In this document: positions 4,889 to 27,698 of the stretch, one piece after another | How positions within the stretch are numbered: position 1 is the stretch's first letter | How the letters are laid out: the number at the start of each line of letters is the position of its first letter | Origin: a virus | DNA: 34,728 bases | UHGV virus genome: UHGV-0126338 | Direction: 5' to 3' (one strand) | Program-made: the position numbers and the translations under genes | The notes under the pieces: generated by a model | What the model saw: only the letters and a program-made list of their open reading frames with translations | Database searches by the model: none | What the model was told of the DNA's origin: nothing

Positions 4889-5742
4889 GCACCATCCTGA
4901 AATGGGCGGGAAATAAAACTGCCATAATGTCCGAACTGAAAAAACATCTTCCTGCTGGCCCGCGACTGGTTGAACCTTTCGCGGGTTCCTGTGCTGTGAT
5001 GATGGAGACGGATTATCCCAGCTATCTGGTTGCGGATATTAATCCTGATTTAATCAACCTCTATAAAAAGGTTGCCGCTGATTGTGAATCGTTTATATCT
5101 CGCGCCAGAGTTTTATTTGAGATCGCAAACAGGGAGGTGGCTTATTACAACATAAGGCAGGAGTTTAATTACTCAACTGAAATTACTGATTTCATGAAAG
5201 CGGTATATTTCCTGTATCTCAATCGTCACGGTTACCGTGGTTTATGTCGCTATAACAAGAGCGGGCATTTCAACATTCCCTACGGTAATTATAAAAATCC
5301 GTATTTCCCTGAAAAAGAAATTCGCGCATTTGCAGAAAAGGCCCAGCGAGCAACGTTTATCTGCGCCAGCTTTGATGAAACGCTGGCGATGTTGAAGGCG
5401 GGGGATGTGGTGTATTGCGATCCGCCGTATGACGGTACGTTTTCCGGCTATCACACTGACGGCTTCACTGAAGATGACCAGTATCACCTGGCATCTGTTC
5501 TTGAACATCGGTCATCAGAAGGACATCCGGTCATTGTTTCTAACAGTGACACATCCCTGATCCGTTCGCTGTATCGCAATTTTACTCACCACTACATCAA
5601 GGCAAAACGCAGCATCGGTGTGGCAGCTGGCGAGGGTAAATCAGCAACAGAAATCATTGCTGTTTCCGGGCCGCGCTGCTGGGTGGGATTTGATTATTCG
5701 CGTGGCGTGGATAGTTCTGCCGTGTACGGAGTACGTGCATGA
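4885..5742 (+). CDS. dam: DNA adenine methyltransferase (Dam-like, orphan)
   Basis: ORF 4825..5742 trimmed to ATG 4885 (RBS GGAGG; ATGA overlap with upstream stop); N-terminal ILKWAGNK motif and DPPY motif ([11 protein letters not shown]) read directly. Confidence 0.85.
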
Positions 5743-8153
5743 GTCATGCCGATATGAACAACTGCTGCGGCTTTAACGAAGCTGCCGCATCGTTCTCATG
5801 GAACAGCCCGAAAAAGGCCATTAACCCTTATCTGGACCCGGTGGAAGTTGCGCCGGTTTCTACGCTTTCAAACCTGATCACTCTGTACGCTGCCGATAAC
5901 GAGCAGGAACAGCTGCGCCGTGAGGCGCTGAGTGATCAGGTCTGGGAGCGTTATTTCTTTAATGAATCCCGTGATCCTGTCCAGCGCGAAATGGAACAGG
6001 ATAAGCTCATTAGTCGGGCAAAGCTGGCGCATGAGCAGCAGCGTTTTAATCCGGATATGGTCATTCTGGCGGACGTCAACGCCCAGCCTTCCCATATCAG
6101 CAAGCCGCTGATGCAACGTATTGAATACTTCAGCAGCCTGGGCAGGCCAAAGGCTTATTCCCGCTATTTACGTGAGACGATTAAGCCATGTCTGGAACGA
6201 CTGGAGCATGTACGCGACAGTCAGCTATCTGCATCTTTTCGCTTTATGGCAAGCCATGAAGGGCTGGACGGCCTGCTGATCCTGCCTGAAATGAGTCAGG
6301 ATCAGGTGAAACGCCTGTCCACCCTGGTAGCTGCGCATATGAGTATGTGCCTTGATGCCGCTTGTGGCGATTTGTATGCCACCGATGACGTTAAGCCAGA
6401 AGAAATCCGCAATACATGGGAAAGGGTGGCAGCGGAAACCCTGCGTCTGGATGTCATCCCGCCTGCGTTTGAGCAACTCCGTCGGAAAAGAAACCGCCGT
6501 AAACCCGTGCTCTATGAACTCATTCCGGGTTCGCTGGCGCGTATGTTGTGCGCCGACTGGTGGTATCGGAAATTATGGAAGATGCGTTGCGAATGGCGGG
6601 AAGAGCAGTTGCGTGCAGTCTGCCTTGTCAGCAAAAAAGCATCTCCTTATGTCAGCTATGAAGCCGTGATGCATAAACGTGAGCAGCGCCGTAAGTCGCT
6701 GGAGTTTTTCCGTTCTCATGAACTGGTGAACGAAGACGGCGACACGCTGGACATGGAGGATGTGGTAAACGCCAGCAGCAGCAACCCAGCGCATCGCCGC
6801 AATGAGATGATGGCCTGTGTTAAAGGTCTGGAGCTTATCGCGGAAATGCGCGGTGACTGCGCCGTTTTCTACACCATCACCTGTCCGTCACGTTTCCATT
6901 CCACGCTAAATAACGGCAGGCCCAACCCAACCTGGACAAATGCGACGGTAAGACAAAGCAGTGATTATCTGGTCGGCATGTTTGCTGCATTTCGTAAGGC
7001 GATGCACAAAGCCGGATTGCGGTGGTATGGCGTGCGGGTGGCTGAGCCGCATCATGACGGTACAGTTCACTGGCACCTGTTGTGTTTTATGCGCAAAAAA
7101 GACCGCCGCACCATCACTGCATTACTGCGTAAGTTTGCCATCCGTGAAGACCGCGAGGAGCTGGGCAATAACACTGGGCCGCGCTTTAAGTCTGAGTTGA
7201 TTAACCCGCGCAAAGGTACGCCAACAAGCTACATCGCGAAATACATCAGTAAGAACATTGACGGGCGTGGTCTGGCTGGCGAGATCAGCAAGGAAACGGG
7301 GAAATCCCTGCGTGATAATGCTGAATACGTTAATGCCTGGGCGTCTCTGCATCGTGTTCAGCAATTCCGCTTCTTTGGCATTCCGGGGCGTCAGGCTTAC
7401 CGTGAACTGCGATTGCTGGCTGGTCAGGCGGCAAGGCAACAGGGGGACAAAAAAGCAGGTGCGCCGGTACTGGATAACCCGCGCCTTGATGCCATTCTGG
7501 CTGCTGCTGATGCTGGTTGTTTTGCCACCTACATCATGAAGCAGGGTGGCGTACTGGTTCCCCGCAAATATCACCTCATCAGAACTGCTTATGAAATCAA
7601 CGAAGAGCCGACCGCCTATGGCGATCACGGCATTCGTATTTATGGCATCTGGTCACCTATTGCAGAGGGCAAGATCTGCACTCATGCCGTGAAGTGGAAA
7701 ATGGTTCGTAAGGCCGTTGACGTTCAGGAGGCGGCAGCCGACCAGGGCGCTTGCGCCCCTTGGACTCGTGGCAATAACTGTCCCCTTGCTGAAAATTTGA
7801 ACCAACAAGGGAAAGACAAATCAGCTGATGGGGATACCAGAACGGACATTACCCGCATGGATGACAAGGAGTTGCACGAATACCTGCACAGTATGAGCAA
7901 AAAAGAGCGCCGGGAACTGGCTGCAAGGTTACGCCTGGTGAAACCGAAACGGCGTAAAGACTACAAACAGCGAATTACAGACCATCAGCGACAGCAGCTC
8001 GTCTATGAACTGAAGTCCAGAGGATTTGATGGCAGCGAGAAAGAGGTCGATTTACTCCTTCGCGGCGGCAGTATTCCGTCAGGAGCAGGCCTGCGTATCT
8101 TCTATCGGAACCAGCGTTTGCAGGAAGATGATAAGTGGCGGAACCTGTATTAA
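5739..8153 (+). CDS. A: Replication initiation endonuclease (P2 gpA-like rolling-circle replicase)
   Basis: 804-aa ORF; motifs [11 protein letters not shown] and [12 protein letters not shown] match P2 A family from memory; start overlaps dam stop (ATGA). Confidence 0.9.
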
Positions 8154-9684: not shown

Positions 9685-9770
9685 CGCGCGCAACTCGAGA
9701 TAGTGTGATACTTATCTGAGAAATCTTAACAAGGTTCAATACAATACCCTTTCAAAAAAAGGGGAGTGTG

Positions 9771-10922
9771 ATGTTTGTAAAAAATAACTTTAATACAAAT
9801 AATTTCGATGCGGAATTAGTTGAAGCGATTGGTAATAGGCTGGAAAACAACCAATTTTCGGATGCAATACTTGCAGGAACCAAATATCTAACAACTTTGC
9901 TGCGTGAAAAAGGGCAATGTGAAGGGGATGGGGCTCAGCTTGTTGGTACTGTTTTGGGTGGACAATCACCTAGAATCCAAATTAATAGTCTTCAATCTGT
10001 ATCAGAGCAGGACGAACAGCGCGGATTTGAAGCACTATTAAGAGGCTACTATCAGTGTATAAGAAATCCAAGGACACATGACAATTTCCCTGATACAGAA
10101 GATTCCTGCATGAGAATATTGATCATGTTGGATACTTTTATTAAGTATTTAAAAAGAGATGTTGCTGAGTTCGATTACACAGCAATTCTTGAAAGAATTT
10201 ATGAGGTTCACTTTGTAAATAATTCTGATTATGCAGAAGCTTTAATATCACAAATTCCAGAAAAAAAACTACTAGATTTTTTCCAAAGTTTAATTTCTCG
10301 CTTTAATGAAAGGCCAACCAAGGAAATTGATTCTATATTCAAAGCAATAAACCAACGCTTTTCAGGAGAGGAAGAAAAAGCCGCAATGCGGTTGCTAGGT
10401 GATGAGTTACGTAAGGCTAGCAATAATGTTGAGTTTGCTAATGTATTTAGAATAATTAAGCCGAGCGCATGGAGAAATCTTCCTGATGATGTTTTAATTA
10501 GAATGGAAAATATAATCATCGAAGAGTGCAAAAAAGGATATTTGGATTTCTATTCTGATGCGACCAAAGGAGCTATAGGAACATGGGGTAATACATTTGG
10601 TAGCAAATTTAAAAGAAGAGGTGATCTTGGTGATGCTTTAATTGGATTGTTATATGATAGTTGGTATACGCAAAATTATGTTGCGAAATATTACGTTTTT
10701 TCAATCCCTTCTATCATTACTGATGATGTGAAAGTTAAGGAGTTAGCTGATGCTTTAGCTTATGCCACCATTGTAAATGGTGCTAAGCTTTTACGAACAA
10801 AATTGATTGATGCATGTAAAAATTATCCTGATAAGTTGAAAGAGCATCTTAGGGATGCTGTTCAGCAACGGATGGATAGTGATAAAAAATATGCGGAAGA
10901 ATTATTAGGTCAAATAAGCTGA
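9771..10922 (+). CDS. Cargo protein with N-terminal HEPN-like domain (R-x4-H motif; resembles TIGR02391-type family) and uncharacterised C-terminal domain; candidate anti-phage/abortive-infection effector
   Basis: ORF 9768(GTG)/9771(ATG)..10922; RBS GGGGAG; motif IRNPRTH (R99-x4-H104, nt 10062..10079); strongly AT-rich versus the flanking phage genes; sits between cos and portal gene Q, convergent with Q. Confidence 0.6.
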   Translation: MFVKNNFNTNNFDAELVEAIGNRLENNQFSDAILAGTKYLTTLLREKGQCEGDGAQLVGTVLGGQSPRIQINSLQSVSEQDEQRGFEALLRGYYQCIRNPRTHDNFPDTEDSCMRILIMLDTFIKYLKRDVAEFDYTAILERIYEVHFVNNSDYAEALISQIPEKKLLDFFQSLISRFNERPTKEIDSIFKAINQRFSGEEEKAAMRLLGDELRKASNNVEFANVFRIIKPSAWRNLPDDVLIRMENIIIEECKKGYLDFYSDATKGAIGTWGNTFGSKFKRRGDLGDALIGLLYDSWYTQNYVAKYYVFSIPSIITDDVKVKELADALAYATIVNGAKLLRTKLIDACKNYPDKLKEHLRDAVQQRMDSDKKYAEELLGQIS

Positions 10923-18891: not shown

Positions 18892-19285
18892 AGCAGTGCC
18901 TTATGTCCGAAATAACCCGGACAAACTGCATCTGTTTGTGGATAACGGTTCGCTGGTTGCCACCGGAGTCAGCTCCATGTCATGGGAGTATCGTTACACC
19001 CTGAACGTGGTGATTGAGGATTTCAGCGGCGACCAGAATCTGCTGATGGCCCCGGTTTTGCTGTGGCTGCGGGATAACCAGCCCGATGCAATCAATAACC
19101 CGGTGTTACGGGAAAAGTTATTCACCTTTGAGGTGGATATTTTGCGCAACGATGTCTGTGATATCAGCCTTAACCTGCAACTGACGGAACGTGTGCTGGT
19201 CAGCACTGACGGGACTGTGTCCAGCGTTGAAGCTGTAGCGGAACCCGATGAACCTGAAGAAGTGTGGACGGTGAAACGTGGTTGA
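18854..19285 (+). CDS. R: Tail completion protein R (P2 gpR-like)
   Basis: ORF 18833..19285; GTG 18854 preferred because RBS AGGAG lies 7 nt upstream. Confidence 0.8.
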   Translation: MNKPQSLRHALNKAVPYVRNNPDKLHLFVDNGSLVATGVSSMSWEYRYTLNVVIEDFSGDQNLLMAPVLLWLRDNQPDAINNPVLREKLFTFEVDILRNDVCDISLNLQLTERVLVSTDGTVSSVEAVAEPDEPEEVWTVKRG

Positions 19286-19721
19286 ACTGCAGAAGGTGGA
19301 CGACTGGCTGAGTGCTTTGCTGGCGAATCTGGAACCAGCCGCAAGAAGCCGCATGATGCGCCAGCTGGCGCAGGAACTTCGGCGGACACAGCAGCAGAAT
19401 ATCAGGATGCAGCGCAACCCTGACGGCAGCAGCTATGAACCGCGACGGGTAACAGCACGCAGTAAAAAAGGCCGTATCAAACGTCAGATGTTTGCAAAGC
19501 TGCGCACCACAAAATACCTGAAAACTGCCGCCAGTGCCGATTCTGCCAGCGTGCAGTTTGAAGGCAAGGTACAGCGCATTGCCCGTGTTCATCACTACGG
19601 CCTGCGTGATCGCGTCAGTCGAAATGGACCAGAAGTGCGATATGCTGAGCGGCAGTTACTTGGCATAGATTCTAAAATAACCGCCGTTATTCGTAATAAG
19701 CTATTTGAGTTTATTAAATAA
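19278..19721 (+). CDS. S: Tail completion protein S (P2 gpS-like)
   Basis: 147 aa, GTG start overlapping R stop. Confidence 0.8.
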   Translation: MVELQKVDDWLSALLANLEPAARSRMMRQLAQELRRTQQQNIRMQRNPDGSSYEPRRVTARSKKGRIKRQMFAKLRTTKYLKTAASADSASVQFEGKVQRIARVHHYGLRDRVSRNGPEVRYAERQLLGIDSKITAVIRNKLFEFIK

Positions 19722-19727
19722 AAACTC

Positions 19728-21524
19728 TCAGGATTGTGATAAATTTATTAAACATTGACAAAAATATTTAATGTCGTCACATATTTCATCTTTATTCATG
19801 TATTCCAGAACTTCATCTCGAGTAATTGAGAAATTATGTTTTAGTGAATTTTCGCCACTAATGAAAATTTCTTTTCCATGTGCGTCTTTTAAGGCTGCAG
19901 CTATATCTGTAGATGTTATCGAATCAGGGATAGCTAACGCATGCCTATCTCTAAAGAAGTTACGTATATCTTCTTCAGATGTCTCTGCAGCTCTTGCGAT
20001 GGCTGATATATCTAGAAAGTAATTTTCAATGTGTCTGCGACGCCATTTCATGGCTAAAAAATCACTATCGCCGTGATTAGTTGATTTATCTTTAAGATCT
20101 GCTCCTACAGAATGGTCGCTATCATCATCACGATCGCGCATGCTAATGGCTTTTAAGTCAGGAATTTCATTTTTTAATTGTTTGTATAATTGAAACCTTT
20201 CTGAAGATTTTCCAGTCCAAAGCCATGTGACAATATTTTTTGGCCATGTTAGTTCTAACTTTTTAAATATTTTTTTTAGGAATCTTTCATCGCTAACACC
20301 TTCAACAATCAACAATCTTTTGTCTTCGGTAAGTTTATGGATTTTGGGGCTAAAGATCGTGCCAATTCCACTTAATAGACCTATTTTTTCATTATCAGAT
20401 CCAAGGTATTTCCCTCTAGAATTTGATAGTGCCAAAATTTTCTGTGGTTCATAAGCCCTGATTAACTCAGTAGAGTGTGTTGCCAATAGGACCTGCTTTC
20501 CTTTTTTAATTGTTATCTCTTCTAAACGTTCAGTTAGATTTTTCTGTAATTGTGTATGTAGGTGAGCATCTGGTTCATCTAGTAGAATGACATTAAATTC
20601 TTCTGATAAGGCCAATGTATATACACTTAACCATTGAAGAAAACCGCTTCCTTCAACCATAATATCTCTAGCATTGAAGTTTTTGTGTTTTTTAAATTGA
20701 TAACCATTGACAACGCCAGCGACACATTCAATTTTTAAGTAACTATGATATTGTTCATTAAATGGAGTTACTTCAAGTTTTAAAGAAAAAAGGTCAAAGA
20801 GTGTTTTTTGTAATATTTCCCAAGGGTCTGTTTCCCTTAATAAATTAAGGTCTTTATTGGCGATTTTGTTTCGCCCTTCTTTTAACCTCCGGCGTTTGTT
20901 TTGATTCTCTAGGTGAATATCGTAAATAGAATTTCTGATTACTCCACCAGAAAGCCCCTGACCGATTAGTCGATTCCTCATTGCTGGGCTAAGACGGCTT
21001 TCTCGGTCTGTAATACCTGCAAATGGAGGGAGATAAGCTATCTGGGGTATATTCTCATTATTTGGAGAACCATCGTCATTCTGTATTTCTTGTAAAGCAA
21101 GGTTGCTAGATGTATTTTTTATAAATAATCTATCATTTGCTAATGATAAACCGATCTCTAAAAACTTCTCATTTTTTAAACTATCATCCCAAAAAAGCTT
21201 TATCTTTAGAGTATAACCATCATCTTCTGTTTGTTTTTGAGATTTTAAATTGGTCCATAAGTGGCTTAAAGACGGTATAAACATCGGCGTGAAATCGACA
21301 ATGCCTAGTCCGACACCTTGATTTGTCGCATTTTCAGTCCAACTCACTCTTCCTTTTTCAATTTCTAAAAGAGTCTTACAGAATTGCCACGTTGCCATTG
21401 CTTGCAGTAACGATGATTTACCGGAATTGTTCCCGCCGACCAGGAGGCTTAATTCGTCATTTAATTGTATTGTTGAGTTTTTATATTTTTTGAATTTCTT
21501 AAGCTCTACTTTTTTTATGTACAT
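19728..21524 (-). CDS. OLD-family ATP-dependent nuclease (N-terminal ABC-type ATPase + C-terminal Toprim), P2 Old-like
   Basis: Walker A GGNNSGKS (aa 30-37), signature-like LSGG (~aa 191), Walker B ILLDEPDAHLH (~aa 313-323), H-loop ATHS, Toprim motifs LLIVEGVSDE (~aa 405-412) and RDRDDD (~aa 463-468, nt ~20121..20138); 598 aa; AT-rich; antisense to the tail operon. Confidence 0.8.
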   Translation of the reverse strand: MYIKKVELKKFKKYKNSTIQLNDELSLLVGGNNSGKSSLLQAMATWQFCKTLLEIEKGRVSWTENATNQGVGLGIVDFTPMFIPSLSHLWTNLKSQKQTEDDGYTLKIKLFWDDSLKNEKFLEIGLSLANDRLFIKNTSSNLALQEIQNDDGSPNNENIPQIAYLPPFAGITDRESRLSPAMRNRLIGQGLSGGVIRNSIYDIHLENQNKRRRLKEGRNKIANKDLNLLRETDPWEILQKTLFDLFSLKLEVTPFNEQYHSYLKIECVAGVVNGYQFKKHKNFNARDIMVEGSGFLQWLSVYTLALSEEFNVILLDEPDAHLHTQLQKNLTERLEEITIKKGKQVLLATHSTELIRAYEPQKILALSNSRGKYLGSDNEKIGLLSGIGTIFSPKIHKLTEDKRLLIVEGVSDERFLKKIFKKLELTWPKNIVTWLWTGKSSERFQLYKQLKNEIPDLKAISMRDRDDDSDHSVGADLKDKSTNHGDSDFLAMKWRRRHIENYFLDISAIARAAETSEEDIRNFFRDRHALAIPDSITSTDIAAALKDAHGKEIFISGENSLKHNFSITRDEVLEYMNKDEICDDIKYFCQCLINLSQS

Positions 21525-21614
21525 AGTGGAGATACCTAACCTTTATTAAACCAAATCGCCTCATCATGAGAACTGGGACAGTTTACTATCTACTGAATTG
21601 TTTCTAAAGAGAAT

Positions 21615-21632
21615 TGTATCAAGTTCCAGACA
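21615..21632. promoter_or_regulatory. TGT-N12-ACA dyad (late activator site) upstream of V
   Basis: TGT ATCAAGTTCCAG ACA, centre ~57 bp upstream of the V start codon. Confidence 0.4.
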
Positions 21633-21680
21633 ATTACAATCCATTTTGGACACGCCCAATATGTGGCAATTTTTTAAGCT

Positions 21681-22259
21681 ATGAACGCACAATTAACCGA
21701 AATCATGCGCCTTATCACCAACCTGATCCGCACTGGGGTAGTCACCGAAGTGGACCGGGAGAACTGGCTTTGCCGGGTGAAAACGGGCGACCTTGAAACC
21801 AACTGGATCAGCTGGCTGACGCTGCGTGCCGGGAATGCCCGCACATGGTGGCGACCATCGGAAGGTGAACAGGTGGTGCTGCTGAGTCTGGGCGGAAATC
21901 TTGAAACCGCCTTTGCGCTGCCCGCCATCTATTCGAATCAGTTCGCACCACCGTCGACGTCGGCGGACGCCTGCGTGACAGAACATCCTGACGGTGGCTG
22001 GTTTGAATACGAACCCGCCACCGGGCGCTGGTATGTCAGAGGCATCAAATCAATGGTCATTGAGGCCGCTGACAACATCACCTTGAAAACCAGTGAGTTT
22101 GTGCTGGAGGCTGACCGCACGCGTATTAACAGCGAAGTGGCGATCAATGGTGGCGTTACCCAGGGCGGCGGTGCGATGAGTTCTAACGGGATCGTGGTTG
22201 ATGCGCATCAGCATACTGGCGTCCTGAAAGGCGGTGATACTACCGGAGGCCCGGTTTGA
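21681..22259 (+). CDS. V: Baseplate spike/assembly protein V (P2 gpV-like)
   Basis: 192 aa; N-terminus aligns by eye with P2 V. Confidence 0.85.
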   Translation: MNAQLTEIMRLITNLIRTGVVTEVDRENWLCRVKTGDLETNWISWLTLRAGNARTWWRPSEGEQVVLLSLGGNLETAFALPAIYSNQFAPPSTSADACVTEHPDGGWFEYEPATGRWYVRGIKSMVIEAADNITLKTSEFVLEADRTRINSEVAINGGVTQGGGAMSSNGIVVDAHQHTGVLKGGDTTGGPV

Positions 22260-23510: not shown

Positions 23511-24108
23511 TCTGCTGCCACCGGGTTCAACGCCACTGGAGCGCCGACTGGCGCAAGCGTGCAGCGGGATTTCTGATTTGCAGGTGCCGCTGCGTGACCT
23601 GTGGGATCCGGCGACCTGTCCGGTCAGTTTCCTGCCTTATCTCGCCTGGGCGTTCTCTGTGGATCGCTGGGACGAGGGCTGGACAGAAAGCGTCAAGCGC
23701 CAGGTGGTGAAGGATGCTTTTTATATTCATCAGCATAAAGGAACCACCAGTGCCGTGCGGCGGGTGGTGGAGCCGTTCGGCTTCCTGATACGAATTATTG
23801 AGTGGTGGCAGACTGGAGAAACACCGGGCACGTTTCGCCTGGACATCGGCGTGCAGGACCAGGGCATCACTGAAGATACCTATCTGGAACTTGAGCGGCT
23901 GATAAGCGATGCCAAACCATGTAGCCGTCACATGATCGGCATGTCCATCAATCTGCAAACTAGTGGCCCGCACTGGGTAGGGGCCGCCAGCTATCTTGGT
24001 GAAGAAATCACGATCTATCCGTATATCAACGAAACAATTATTTCTGGCGGCACCGCGCATGAAGGCGGGGCGGTCCATGTTATTGACACAATGAGAGTGA
24101 ATCCATGA
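23503..24108 (+). CDS. I: Baseplate/tail protein I (P2 gpI-like)
   Basis: 201 aa between J and the tail fibre gene. Confidence 0.8.
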   Translation: MNSLLPPGSTPLERRLAQACSGISDLQVPLRDLWDPATCPVSFLPYLAWAFSVDRWDEGWTESVKRQVVKDAFYIHQHKGTTSAVRRVVEPFGFLIRIIEWWQTGETPGTFRLDIGVQDQGITEDTYLELERLISDAKPCSRHMIGMSINLQTSGPHWVGAASYLGEEITIYPYINETIISGGTAHEGGAVHVIDTMRVNP

Positions 24109-25652
24109 GCACAAAATTTTATACCTTGCTGACGGATATTGGCGCGGCGAAACTTGCCAGCGCCGCCGCGCTCGGTGTGCCGTTAAAAATTACCCATATG
24201 GCGGTAGGCGATGGCGGCGGAACATTACCAACGCCGGACGCAAAGCAGACTGCACTGGTAAATGAGAAACGCCGGGCTGCGCTGAATATGCTCTATATCG
24301 ACCCGCAAAACAGCAGCCAGATTATTGCTGAACAGGTGATCCCTGAAAACGAAGGCGGTTGGTGGATACGTGAAGTGGGCCTGTTTGATGAATCCGGGGC
24401 ATTGATTGCCGTGGGCAACTGCCCGGAAAGCTATAAGCCGCAACTGGCTGAAGGCAGCGGGCGCACCCAGACCGTGCGCATGGTGCTGATTACCAGCAGC
24501 ACGGACAATATCACCCTGAAAATCGACCCTGCCGTCGTGCTGGCAACCCGCAAGTATGTGGATGATAAGGTACTGGAGCTGAAGGTGTACGTGGATGATC
24601 AGATGGCAAAACATCTTGCAGCACCGGACCCGCATTCACAGTATGCACCCAAAGAAAGCCCTATGTTTACCGGGACACCCAAAGCGCCAACGCCAGCGGC
24701 GGGGAATAACACCACGCAGGTTGCGACCACCGCGTTTGTTCAGGTGGCACTGACGGCTCTTATTAATGGTGCGCCAGCCACGCTGGACACGCTGAAAGAA
24801 ATTGCCGCAGCCATAAACAATGACCCGAAATTCAGTACCACCATTAACAATGCGCTGGCACTGAAAGCGCCGCTGTTAAGTCCGGCACTCACCGGAACGC
24901 CAACAGCCCCCACTGCCGCACAGTCGGTTAACAATACACAGATTGCCACCACGGCTTTTGTGAAATCGGCAATTGCGGCAATGGTGGGGTCTGCACCTGC
25001 TGCACTGGATACACTGAACGAACTGGCTGCGGCGCTGGGGAATGACCCGAACTTTGCCACGACAATGCTTAATGCGCTGGCAGGTAAACAACCGCTGGAC
25101 AATACGCTGACTAATTTGAGTGGAAAGGATGTAGCTGGTCTTCTCGCATACCTTGGTTTGGGAGAAGGCTCAGCGTTACCCGTTGGTGTGCCTGTTCCGT
25201 GGCCTTCAGCCACACCACCAACAGGCTGGCTGAAATGCAACGGTGCACCTTTTTCTGCCGAAGAGTACCCAAAACTGGCAAAGGCTTACCCAAAGTTAAA
25301 ATTACCGGATTTGCGCGGTGAGTTTATTCGCGGGTGGGATGATGGGCGAGGTGTTGATTCCGCGAGACTGCTGCTTTCAAGTCAGGCAGCATCTATCCTT
25401 GAACATAACCATGAAATGCATGGATGGACAGGGAACCCACTCATGGCTAGAGATGTTGGTGAATTAGGTACATCATCCGTATTTGCGGTGCAGTTGAGCA
25501 TTGGCGATGGCGGGTTATTGTATTCGTGGAAGGATGGGAGTGGAACAACAAATGACAGTAAACGAATGGATAGAACAAATCATGTCAGTTCCGGCGCCGG
25601 TGATGGTAGCCCGCGAAACATTGCATTTAACTACATTGTGAGGGCTGCATAA
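24105..25652 (+). CDS. H: Tail fibre protein H (constant N-terminal part; C-terminal ~162 aa lies inside the invertible segment)
   Basis: 515 aa with Ala/Thr-rich repeated fibre segments; recombination site at 25141..25166 inside the gene. Confidence 0.85.
   Translation: MSTKFYTLLTDIGAAKLASAAALGVPLKITHMAVGDGGGTLPTPDAKQTALVNEKRRAALNMLYIDPQNSSQIIAEQVIPENEGGWWIREVGLFDESGALIAVGNCPESYKPQLAEGSGRTQTVRMVLITSSTDNITLKIDPAVVLATRKYVDDKVLELKVYVDDQMAKHLAAPDPHSQYAPKESPMFTGTPKAPTPAAGNNTTQVATTAFVQVALTALINGAPATLDTLKEIAAAINNDPKFSTTINNALALKAPLLSPALTGTPTAPTAAQSVNNTQIATTAFVKSAIAAMVGSAPAALDTLNELAAALGNDPNFATTMLNALAGKQPLDNTLTNLSGKDVAGLLAYLGLGEGSALPVGVPVPWPSATPPTGWLKCNGAPFSAEEYPKLAKAYPKLKLPDLRGEFIRGWDDGRGVDSARLLLSSQAASILEHNHEMHGWTGNPLMARDVGELGTSSVFAVQLSIGDGGLLYSWKDGSGTTNDSKRMDRTNHVSSGAGDGSPRNIAFNYIVRAA
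25141..25166. repeat. Left inversion crossover site (gix/hix/pix-like)
   Basis: TTCTCGCATACCTTGGTTTGGGAGAA; its 14-bp end TTGGTTTGGGAGAA is an exact inverted copy of the end of the site at 27052..27077. Confidence 0.6.
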
Positions 25653-26255
25653 ATGGAACAGGCTATTTTGGGAAAAGACGGTTACGCTTTAAATGATGGG
25701 GAAATCATCGTACATAACTATGATGGCGAAACGCGGGAATATATTTCTACATCAACTGAATATCTCGCTGTCGGAGTCGGTATCCCGGCATGTTCCTGTC
25801 TGGATGCACCAGGTACACATAAAGCTGGTTATGCAATCTGTCGCTCTGTAGATTTAAATTCATGGGAATATGTGCCAGACCATCGCGGTGAAACGGTCTA
25901 TAGCACCAAAACAGGAGAATCAAAAGAAATCACCGCTCCGGGTGATTACCCTGAAAATACAACCACTATCGCCCCATTAACGCCATACGATAAATGGGAT
26001 GGTGAGAAATGGGTGACCGATACTGAGGCACAGCATAGCGCCGCAGTAGACGCGGCAGAAGCACAGCGCCAGTCACTGATTGATGCTGCAATGGCTTCCA
26101 TTAGTCTGATTCAACTGAAATTGCAGGCCGGACGTAAACTGACGCAGGCAGAAACAACCAGACTTAACGCTGTGCTGGATTACATTGACGCGGTGACGGC
26201 AACAGATACCAGCACCGCGCCGGATGTCATCTGGCCTGAACTGCCGGAGGCGTAG
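25653..26255 (+). CDS. G: Tail fibre assembly chaperone (P2 gpG-like), active orientation
   Basis: 200 aa immediately after H; C-terminus ...APDVIWPELPEA. Confidence 0.8.
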   Translation: MEQAILGKDGYALNDGEIIVHNYDGETREYISTSTEYLAVGVGIPACSCLDAPGTHKAGYAICRSVDLNSWEYVPDHRGETVYSTKTGESKEITAPGDYPENTTTIAPLTPYDKWDGEKWVTDTEAQHSAAVDAAEAQRQSLIDAAMASISLIQLKLQAGRKLTQAETTRLNAVLDYIDAVTATDTSTAPDVIWPELPEA

Positions 26256-26670
26256 GCCATTCAATATCTGGCGCACTGGAGGTATCAACCAGCTCCAGTG
26301 CATCCAGATAATCCAGCCACAAATTATATTGCGCCAGTTCCTCACCTTTCAGACGACCAATAGCGGCTTTACCGGGCCATTGCTTACTGTTCATGTATTC
26401 GTTGGCCTGGTTAATTAGTAGCTGTCTTTCTGATTCAGTAATTTCAATAAGCTCTTCATGCGTGGGTGGAGGAATATCTGCCCACGCAGGCAGCCCATCA
26501 TCTCCGGCAATACGGATTTTTCCTTGTGGCGGTTCAGCCATAAACTCACTGATAATATTTTGATTTACTTCCTTAGCGTCTGATAAATCCCATCCCTCTG
26601 ATTTATATTTATCAATCATATCCACAGGGAAAAAAGCATTATGCCTTGCGCTATAAACATATTCGTTCAT
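26227..26670 (-). CDS. Alternative tail fibre assembly chaperone (silent orientation within the invertible segment)
   Basis: Minus-strand ORF 26227..26679 trimmed to ATG 26670; C-terminus ...APDIEWPTPPAVQAR parallels G; tail-to-tail overlap with G. Confidence 0.7.
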   Translation of the reverse strand: MNEYVYSARHNAFFPVDMIDKYKSEGWDLSDAKEVNQNIISEFMAEPPQGKIRIAGDDGLPAWADIPPPTHEELIEITESERQLLINQANEYMNSKQWPGKAAIGRLKGEELAQYNLWLDYLDALELVDTSSAPDIEWPTPPAVQAR

Positions 26671-26690
26671 ATAAATCACCCTGAATAAAA

Positions 26691-27077
26691 TTACTCACCA
26701 ACAGCCCACCAACTGTAATTCATCGATACCGTGTCGCTGGTTGATGACGTTCTGTAAGCAGAATTAAAGCCGGTTAACGTTGGGCCTTCTGCAGTCATCA
26801 CGAACCCTCGCCCAGCGCCTAAAGGCGCACCGCCATCACCAGAATGAGTAAGCATGGCGCAGTCCGCTTTTTTGGGGAAAGGGATGCTGAATGTAATTCT
26901 CATTGTTTGCGTCGATAATGTCGGCGTAACCGCACCACGACCATATTGCAGGATTTTCCCGTTGGGTAATTTCATCCATCCATCACCACTGGCAAAAGAG
27001 GCCATGTCCGGTATCTGATTTTCCCCTGTCCCCACATCCCGTTTTGCCGCTTCTCCCAAACCAACGTTTATGAAAAT
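26691..27077 (-). other. Promoterless alternative tail-fibre C-terminal cassette (alternative H variable part), in frame through the right crossover site
   Basis: Minus-strand frame encodes ...VGLGEAAKRDVG... across the site, matching ...YLGLGEGSALPVG... at the left site in H; ends at stop 26691. Confidence 0.6.
27052..27077. repeat. Right inversion crossover site
   Basis: TTCTCCCAAACCAACGTTTATGAAAA; inverted relative to 25141..25166; resembles hix/gix-type sites. Confidence 0.6.
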
Positions 27078-27131
27078 GCAGAGATAACGGCTAACAGGCA
27101 TCATCTCCGGTTTTTATTCAGGGGGATGATC

Positions 27132-27698
27132 ATGCTTATTGGCTATGTACGCGTGTCAACAAATGACCAGAACACCGATTTGCAACGCAATGCACTGAAC
27201 TGTGCGGGATGTGAGCGGATTTTTGAGGATAAAATCAGTGGCACCAAGTCCGACAGACCGGGGCTGAAAAAGCTGCTCAGGACACTATCGGCAGGAGACA
27301 CTCTGGTTGTCTGGAAGCTGGACAGGTTGGGGCGCAGTATGCGGCATCTTGTTACGCTGATAGAAGAGTTGCGTCAGCGTGGCGTGAATTTCCGAAGCCT
27401 GACTGACAGTATTGATACCAGTACCCCAATGGGCCGTTTCTTTTTTCATGTCATGGGTGCCCTGGCTGAAATGGAACGCGAACTGATAGTTGAACGTACC
27501 AGGGCAGGGCTGGCTGCAGCTCGTGCCAAAGGCAGAGTAGGTGGACGCCGTCCTAAGTTGACCACCGAACAGTGGGCACAGATTGGGCGTTTACTCGAGG
27601 CCGGAGAATCAATACAGCGTATTGCACTGATTTTTGATGTAGGCGTTTCTACCATTTATAGAAAATTTCCGGCAAATAAGATCAATGAATCCCCCTGA
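27132..27698 (+). CDS. Serine DNA invertase (Gin/Hin/Pin/Cin family)
   Basis: MLIGYVRVSTNDQ... catalytic serine motif and C-terminal HTH; near-identical N-terminus to Mu Gin from memory; ORF 27126..27698 with ATG 27132 preferred. Confidence 0.9.
   Translation: MLIGYVRVSTNDQNTDLQRNALNCAGCERIFEDKISGTKSDRPGLKKLLRTLSAGDTLVVWKLDRLGRSMRHLVTLIEELRQRGVNFRSLTDSIDTSTPMGRFFFHVMGALAEMERELIVERTRAGLAAARAKGRVGGRRPKLTTEQWAQIGRLLEAGESIQRIALIFDVGVSTIYRKFPANKINESP

Follow-up and report, generated by a model that had tools for sequence, protein, structure and literature searches.

Which enzyme is encoded by the antisense gene between the tail genes S and V of a P2-like prophage, and what does the prophage carry it for? 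We analysed the virus genome UHGV-0126338, a stretch of 34,728 nucleotides (the window), with respect to the open reading frame (ORF) at 19728..21524 on its minus strand, which starts with ATG, encodes 598 amino acids (aa) according to the ORF list and matches Pfam AAA_15 and AAA_21. The original prediction had described it as a P2 Old-type ATPase-Toprim nuclease inserted at an unusual place. The feature was real, the ORF was correctly delimited and its superfamily was right, but the reading as P2 Old-type at an unusual place failed. We conclude that the protein represents a separate compact clade (~598 aa) of the OLD superfamily, which belongs to Class 1 by context and is a neighbour of the Class 4 merged PARIS proteins by descent. 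Considering all the evidence together, it is probably a cargo gene of the P2-like prophage and encodes a stand-alone anti-phage effector, in which an ATP-binding cassette (ABC) ATPase similar to PtuA and AriA is fused to a two-metal Toprim nuclease similar to AriB, acting by the mechanism described below.

The full-length structural model had a predicted local distance difference test (pLDDT) score of 80.7, and the C-terminal domain modelled alone reached a pLDDT of 92.1 with a predicted template modelling score (pTM) of 0.88. The appearance of a Toprim fold on structure prediction had been set beforehand as a test, and it was supported, as the nearest solved structures were Toprim nucleases. 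In the structure comparison of the nuclease domain, AriB was the top match (score 9.2 over 163 aa, 17% identity), followed by the archaeal PH0156 (8.3), a Class 2 OLD (8.2), the Class 1 protein Ts OLD (6.9), GajA (6.6), the Retron Ec67 nuclease (6.1) and the Retron Eco8 OLD nuclease (5.9). For the ATPase head, the scores of PtuA (19.4), retron PtuA-like ATPases (~19), an SMC head (19.0) and AriA (18.1, 19% identity) were higher than those of Ts OLD (13.6), the Retron Eco8 OLD nuclease (13.6) and GajA (12.2), showing that the head was nearer to PtuA and AriA than to OLD or GajA. The models suggested that both halves resemble the PARIS pair more than Old or GajA. A PDB sequence search with the C-terminal profile returned only a spurious match to a pentatricopeptide repeat (PPR) protein, and no sequence bridge to AriB, OLD or GajA was found there.

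The C-terminal nuclease region (aa 385-598; 19731..20372, minus strand) comprises a Toprim core at aa 403-505 and a variable helical subdomain at aa 506-598. Motif conservation was assessed in an alignment of 27 diverse family members with 54-85% identity, to which the statements on motif invariance refer. The VEG and DxD motifs of the Toprim domain, which had been read from the sequence before, were found as L-I-V-E408-G and R-D464-R-D466 in all members. In the glutamate motif E408-G-V-S-D412 (20289..20303, minus strand) E408, S411 and D412 were invariant, as was the DxD motif R463-D464-R465-D466 (20127..20138, minus strand). A third, basic/acidic motif, K493-W-R-R-R-H-I-E500 (20025..20048, minus strand), showed an entropy of 0.24 and was invariant as K-W-R-R-R-H-x-E500. 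E408 and D412 have the E-x3-D spacing of AriB E26 and D30 (PMC11464382). Judged by order and spacing, D464 and D466 of the DxD motif would be the counterparts of AriB D88 and E90, and E500, located 36 residues past D464 as compared with 34 past D88, would be that of AriB E122 (PMC11464382). The five residues E408, D412, D464, D466 and E500 matched the order and spacing of AriB E26, D30, D88, E90 and E122 (PMC11464382), and the domain combined an AriB-like Toprim fold with this acidic active-site constellation. Pfam gave only a sub-threshold DUF3226 match in the C-terminal third, scoring 24.1 bits when the full-length protein was scanned and 26.3 bits for the domain alone, below the cut-off of 27.

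The ABC-ATPase head spans aa 1-384 (20373..21524, minus strand) and includes a family-specific insert at aa 61-288. Pfam AAA_15 (2.7e-23, 83.6 bits) and AAA_21 (1.6e-16, 61.7 bits) matched the N-terminal two thirds of the protein. A complete ABC motif set had been claimed for it, and most of the set was borne out by the alignment: Walker A GGNNSGKS with K36 (aa 30-37; 21414..21437, minus strand) was invariant except for G31, which was conserved in at least 90%; the Walker B and D-loop motif VILLDEPD (aa 312-319; 20568..20591, minus strand) was invariant from L314 to D319; and the H-loop ATHS with H350 (aa 348-351; 20472..20483, minus strand) was invariant. The LSGG at aa 191-194, however, is probably not the ABC signature for which it had been taken, as it lies ~120 residues ahead of Walker B in a poorly predicted loop. 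The true signature position is probably occupied by EGSGFLQ instead. The motif EGSGFLQW (aa 291-298; 20631..20654, minus strand) had the lowest entropy of the protein (0.11) and was located in the full-length model at the start of helix 295-306, which precedes the Walker B strand 312-316. Its residues E-G-S293-G294-F-L-Q (291-297) were aligned by position with the LSGGE of Rad50, and EGSGF was invariant. The loop at aa 161-200 (IAYLPPFAGITDRESRLSPAMRNRLIGQGLSGGVIRN; 20925..21044, minus strand), which contains LSGG, was near-invariant with a block entropy of 0.38-0.56, and despite this near-invariance across the family its residues 170-192 had a pLDDT below 50 and were left unplaced by AlphaFold. 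Such strong constraint without predicted structure suggests a contact formed only in the oligomer or with a ligand, and the loop may be part of the Q-loop (Q189).

A database search yielded 1,554 relatives; the best 120 of these were almost all ~598 aa long with 54-100% identity over the full length, and came from Enterobacterales, Pseudomonas, Burkholderia, Paraburkholderia and others. An exhaustive HMMER search, in which the nuclease-domain profile was run against 1.84 billion cluster representatives, returned only 233 clusters, nearly all of the fused architecture of ~590 aa. Six proteins of ~307-311 aa (P0121, P0139, P0144, P0147, P0149 and P0161) matched this profile from about residue 95. 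Their length is the distance from the invariant internal M289 to the C-terminus, and because they start at the position of M289, truncated gene calls are more likely than genuine split two-gene forms.

By both profile and fold the closest known relative was fused PARIS (AriAB), which the original prediction had not considered. Among the PADLOC models, AriAB (merged PARIS) was the best for the whole protein (1.1e-25, 88 bits; positions 332-535 of 694) and the only significant one for the nuclease domain alone (1.9e-10), and the GajA, two-gene AriB and Old models gave no match to the C-terminal domain. The head also exceeded the ATPase thresholds used to recognise PARIS (AAA_15 32 bits, AAA_21 27 bits; Rousset 2022). 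Like merged PARIS (OLD 'Class 4'), the protein joins an AAA_15/AAA_21 ABC ATPase and, C-terminal to it, a Toprim nuclease in one polypeptide, and both are found on P2/P4-type mobile elements. Unlike merged PARIS, it is ~100 aa shorter than the AriAB model, lacks DUF4435, and has its own conserved insert at aa 61-288 and a variable C-terminal helical subdomain. We know of no mechanistic study of merged AriAB proteins. Among 19 family members, DUF3226 was touched by 13 and OLD-like_TOPRIM weakly by 8 (E of at least 0.016). A distant relative, P0253, showed AAA_15 plus a sub-threshold DUF4435 match of 24.5 bits, and on these profile matches would form a bridge toward merged PARIS.

Class 1 OLD is defined by context as a single-gene ATPase-Toprim (Schiltz 2019 and Dot 2023, summarised in PMC10568477). 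The present gene encodes ABC ATPase and Toprim in one polypeptide, and no helicase, reverse transcriptase or nuclease partner accompanied it in more than 10 independent contexts. Like GajA of Gabija (Class 2 OLD), it joins an ABC ATPase to a Toprim domain, and many GajA hidden Markov models matched its ATPase part (1e-15 to 1e-23). The UvrD/PcrA/Rep-like helicase GajB was found neither next to the ORF, whose neighbours are gpS and gpV, nor in the homologue contexts; as to a type I-B retron (Class 3 OLD), there was no reverse transcriptase gene and no Rfam match above noise in 19500-21800. Neither a helicase nor a reverse transcriptase nor a second nuclease gene lay beside the ORF or any homologue examined, consistent with the earlier view, which excluded both a Gabija pair and a two-gene PARIS locus. 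A literature search for its RefSeq accession, WP_061548811.1, found nothing useful.

The same profile data bear on the possibility that the protein is a functional equivalent of P2 Old, in which case it would guard RecBCD, be triggered by Gam inhibition, be lethal in recB/recC hosts and exclude lambda. We regard this as improbable, although the likeness is real. P2 Old and the Class 1 proteins Ts OLD (6P74) and Vc OLD are likewise single-gene ATPase-Toprim enzymes with remote sequence homology to the present one, and P2 Old is, in the same way, an AT-rich, antisense, non-essential cargo gene of a P2-like prophage. Remote homology extended from Walker A to the Toprim glutamate: BLASTP against Old of the P2 reference genome gave 28% identity across a 130-aa segment between Walker B and the Toprim glutamate (8e-7), hhalign gave a probability of 80% with an alignment that stopped short of the DxD motif, and Ts OLD was the only PDB sequence with a profile match reaching the Toprim region. 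On the other hand, the PADLOC Old model, which scored 712 bits over the full length of P2 Old itself, was not in the top 25 models of the present protein, and Pfam OLD-like_TOPRIM reached 14.5 bits for the nuclease against a cut-off of 23.2, leaving the C-terminal domain without an Old or OLD-like_TOPRIM match above threshold. Both domains were structurally closer to AriA/AriB than to Ts OLD, and triggers vary within Class 1, Vc OLD being independent of RecBCD (PMC12392090). Thus the OLD reading stood as far as a single-polypeptide ABC-ATPase plus Toprim of the OLD superfamily is concerned, but not at the level of a P2 Old-type family. We conclude that the clade falls outside the P2 Old, GajA and Pfam-defined PARIS families.

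We propose the following mechanism for a stand-alone anti-phage effector. In the lysogen, the protein would be made from its own weak leftward promoter and held inactive. The ATPase head would sense a competing phage, either by binding a phage protein or by detecting a disturbed host process, and ATP binding or hydrolysis would then rearrange the oligomer and thereby activate the tethered Toprim sites. Cleavage by the Toprim domain would fall on host nucleic acid, with the anticodon stem of certain tRNAs as the most likely target, and translation would stop, leading to abortive infection that protects the lysogen population together with the prophage. The roles of the ATPase as sensor or switch and of the Toprim domain as effector follow from characterised relatives. 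AriB cleaves the anticodon stem of tRNA-Lys and of a few other tRNAs (PMC11464382, PMC12409363), and P2 Old cleaves the tRNA-Thr anticodon stem, with ATP hydrolysis activating cleavage (PMC12445682). If the protein is a defence nuclease, we estimate an about even chance that it works through tRNA cleavage, translation arrest and abortive infection.

The main rival to tRNA cleavage is a DNA-targeting nickase or exonuclease like Vc OLD, Ts OLD and GajA that damages replicating phage DNA. The two-metal Toprim site is common to the DNA-cutting OLD and GajA enzymes, the head is of the SMC/Rad50/RecF type, for which DNA is the usual partner, and phage replication is blocked by a Class 1 OLD from Vibrio that nicks DNA (PMC12392090). 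We consider DNA targeting possible but unlikely here, since tRNA is the in vivo target of both AriB, the nearest nuclease relative, and P2 Old, the founding member, even though P2 Old cuts DNA as well when assayed in vitro (PMC11464382, PMC12445682), and no GajA model matched the C-terminal domain.

Several points weigh against the proposed tRNA-cleaving, PARIS-like effector. Ts OLD and GajA cut DNA, as does the Vibrio enzyme, and the substrate is not readable from sequence. In PARIS, AriA senses Ocr or Ptr1/2, whereupon AriB is released, dimerises and cleaves tRNA-Lys. This release-and-dimerise step cannot apply here because the nuclease is covalently tethered; as a speculation, a conformational or oligomeric switch could replace subunit release. 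The AriAB match was partial, with 88 bits to a 694-position model. PARIS was defined by Rousset et al. using Pfam DUF4435 with a score of at least 27 bits (PMC9122126), and this score was not reached: DUF4435 was found in 0 of the 19 family members, and the C-terminal domain gave no match to it at E <= 10. As for expression in the lysogen, a consensus promoter and terminator scan of both intergenic regions found no site, and thus no strong promoter.

The distribution of the gene was that of a mobile accessory function. It occurred as a lone gene in at least 10 independent contexts with unrelated neighbours. The S-V slot was occupied by it in an intact P2-like prophage of Citrobacter, where the protein was 84% identical and the S and nuclease genes overlapped by 4 nt, and in four IMG/VR viral contigs whose gpS and gpV ranged from 99% down to ~50% identity to those of the window. 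Elsewhere it was located between CI and integrase in P2/186-type prophages (Mixta; IMG/VR contig L027), at the end of a P2-like prophage in Burkholderia, beside TraC on a conjugative element in Pantoea, and on non-phage chromosomal islands in Pseudomonas and Paraburkholderia. In Enterobacter, the gene and a fragment of the S gene remained at the ybjL attachment site while the rest of the prophage was gone; this remnant adjoins a SEFIR/TIR gene, with an ars operon nearby. On another enterobacterial contig the gene was the sole remnant between ybjL and arsC. That the gene survives where the prophage has decayed (L019, 5001-6836; L004-L006, 6001-7797) clearly exemplifies how a host can keep the weapon of a phage.

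Divergence at nonsynonymous sites (pN) was 0.10-0.13 for the closest alleles, and that at synonymous sites (pS) was saturated at ~0.8 or higher; pN and pS are given rather than dN/dS because the synonymous sites are saturated. Purifying selection on the nuclease gene is strong. The nuclease half evolved about twice as fast as the ATPase half, and the C-terminal helical subdomain at aa 506-598 was the most variable part, with 5 of its 93 positions invariant. In every lineage, the GC content of the gene was far below that of its host.

We then consider the place of the gene in the prophage. Upstream of the ORF lie gpR and gpS, the latter being the tail-completion gene and the last gene of the late O operon (19278..19721, plus strand; Pfam Phage_tail_S 9.6e-40, residues 2-142), and downstream lies gpV, the baseplate spike and first gene of the late V operon (21681..22259, plus strand; Pfam Phage_base_V plus Apex). 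The stop codon of S (TAA) is at 19719-19721 and that of the ORF (TCA on the plus strand) at 19728-19730, leaving a gap of exactly 6 bp. The GC content of the ORF was ~0.35, with 0.34-0.40 over 19501-21500 as compared with 0.54-0.60 on both sides (backbone ~0.55). These coordinates and values agreed in full with the earlier description of an AT-rich, antisense ORF convergent with S with 6 bp between the stop codons.

The S-V junction had been regarded as an unusual site, and this view did not hold. The P2 reference annotation places the non-essential antisense gene orf30 in the same position, with the O-operon terminator on one side and the pV activator site on the other, and in phage R18C the S-V junction is occupied by a different ORF again (PMC6823313), so that the junction is an accessory slot of P2 itself. 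The present gene likewise follows the S stop codon and precedes the pV activator site, is antisense and AT-rich, and is absent from close relatives. Position and orientation are thus those of orf30. The cargo differs, as it has no sequence similarity to Orf30 and is a recognisable defence-type enzyme; Orf30 as a homologue was rejected for the same lack of similarity. Orf30 itself (261 aa; L002, 9439-10224) gave no Pfam or PADLOC match at E <= 0.001. The main hotspot papers focus on the A-Q, Z/fun and int-proximal loci (PMC9122126; bioRxiv 10.1101/2024.10.15.618418).

A megablast search against phages found 47 matching records that covered only 39% of the query, in the flanks alone. Among the matches listed, S and V were ~1.4 kb apart without the insert; the nearest was Escherichia phage 500465-1, and many were Klebsiella prophages. 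A tblastn search of 50,697 phage records with the protein gave no match. Similarity to the insert-free phage 500465-1 ended at ~19657, about 65 nt before the S stop codon, and resumed at the V start codon. The swapped accessory module is therefore ~2.0 kb long (19657..21678). Besides the nuclease gene, it contains an AT-rich 3' end of S comprising the final ~21 codons (19657-19721), which are unlike those of the insert-free relatives, and on the other side the intergenic DNA that carries the pV promoter. Since the S tail differs and Phage_tail_S nevertheless matches end to end, the module brings its own S C-terminus. A repeat search found no direct or inverted repeats flanking the module, which points to its arrival by homologous exchange between P2-like genomes rather than by transposition. 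The earlier term 'inserted' is imprecise: what was exchanged is a ~2-kb module including the S tail and the pV promoter region. The Rfam scan of the module, the repeat search and the tRNA scan of the whole window found nothing, and these results argue against an RNA partner, a self-protective tRNA, a retron non-coding RNA and transposon ends.

Upstream of V, we found a TGT-N12-ACA sequence (21615..21632, plus strand), the Ogr/Delta-type late activator site of pV, centred ~55 nt before the gene. Its geometry was the same as that of the annotated P2 pV site, and TGT and ACA were kept in the Citrobacter allele. For the nuclease gene, a weak candidate promoter (TTAGAA and TAAACT, 16 nt apart; 21580..21607, minus strand) may lie in the same region. 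This putative site is below the stringency of the consensus scan and falls within a block conserved between two alleles that are 84% identical at the protein level. Two terminator-like sites were seen inside the nuclease gene, no more than predicted by chance. A minus-strand hairpin in the S tail was also considered as a terminator and was not convincing, having a z of -2.0 yet no U-tract.

The failure to find a clear promoter, together with the absence of family matches for orf30, the P2 gene in this slot, could be taken to mean that the gene has no role in defence and serves phage DNA processing or repair, stabilises the prophage as an addiction toxin, or is an inert passenger. Such a role appears very improbable. 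Closely related phages without the gene keep S and V adjacent, indicating that it is dispensable for the phage; the gene is found outside phages as well, on a conjugative element and on chromosomal islands, and it outlives the prophage. Moreover, the catalytic motifs are all invariant under strong purifying selection, and every related characterised family is a defence system.

The arrangement of the genes suggests a possible way of control for the proposed effector. As the nuclease gene stands tail-to-tail with the late O operon, 6 bp away and with no terminator between them, late O-operon transcription in the phage's own lytic cycle could run antisense across the gene and silence the nuclease. 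If true, the lysogen would be armed, and the phage would lay this weapon down during its own replication. In a more far-reaching and rather doubtful form of the proposal, the clade would follow the PARIS logic independently and with a permanently tethered nuclease, activated through an intramolecular or oligomeric switch with the aa 161-200 loop as candidate element, the fast-evolving C-terminal subdomain determining which tRNA or other target is cut, and late antisense transcription silencing the gene.

The ATPase-Toprim nucleases of the OLD superfamily belong to the phage-exclusion enzymes that have been known longest, yet they are still among the least understood; the cleavage of tRNA anticodon stems by P2 Old and AriB was shown only recently. 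The present clade, which is uncharacterised, falls between 'Class 1' (single gene) and 'Class 4' (PARIS). Its nuclease domain is missed by the current Toprim models, namely DUF4435, OLD-like_TOPRIM, and PADLOC Old and GajA, which is why routine annotation gives only 'AAA family ATPase'. The clade could show how a fused sensor-nuclease stays silent and then switches on without subunit release, and could serve to test whether tRNA targeting is the ancestral activity of the OLD/PARIS radiation. In addition, the S-V (orf30) slot, largely overlooked by defence-hotspot studies, is a further P2 locus that can be mined for defence genes.

With regard to the prophage as a whole, the window coincides almost exactly with a P2-like prophage that is integrated in E. 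coli between rcdA and ybjL. DNA identical to the window was present in 5 of 5,426 complete E. coli genomes, each time in the same rcdA-ybjL context, and the nuclease ORF was annotated in those genomes merely as 'AAA family ATPase' (the RefSeq accession given above). The prophage seems complete in the window, with a gpA of 804 aa and a tail fibre H of 515 aa. In the copy of strain EC931 (L001, 6141-8554 and 24506-24895), gpA was frameshifted and the tail-fibre gene truncated; the equivalents in the window (5739-8153 and 24105-25652) were intact, and the nuclease gene was 100% identical between both copies. At the A-Q (old/tin) hotspot, the window carries an AT-rich gene of 384 aa (9768-10922, plus strand; GC ~0.33-0.35) with an N-terminal Hypoth_Ymh (TIGR02391) domain and weak PADLOC matches to PD-Lambda-3_B and Aga_HEPN, which is probably a second, unrelated defence candidate within the same prophage. 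Finally, a serine invertase of the Gin/Cin type (27126-27698; Pfam Resolvase plus HTH_7) adjoins tail-fibre and fibre-assembly segments in opposite orientations, and this region (26227-27698) looks like an invertible host-range switch.

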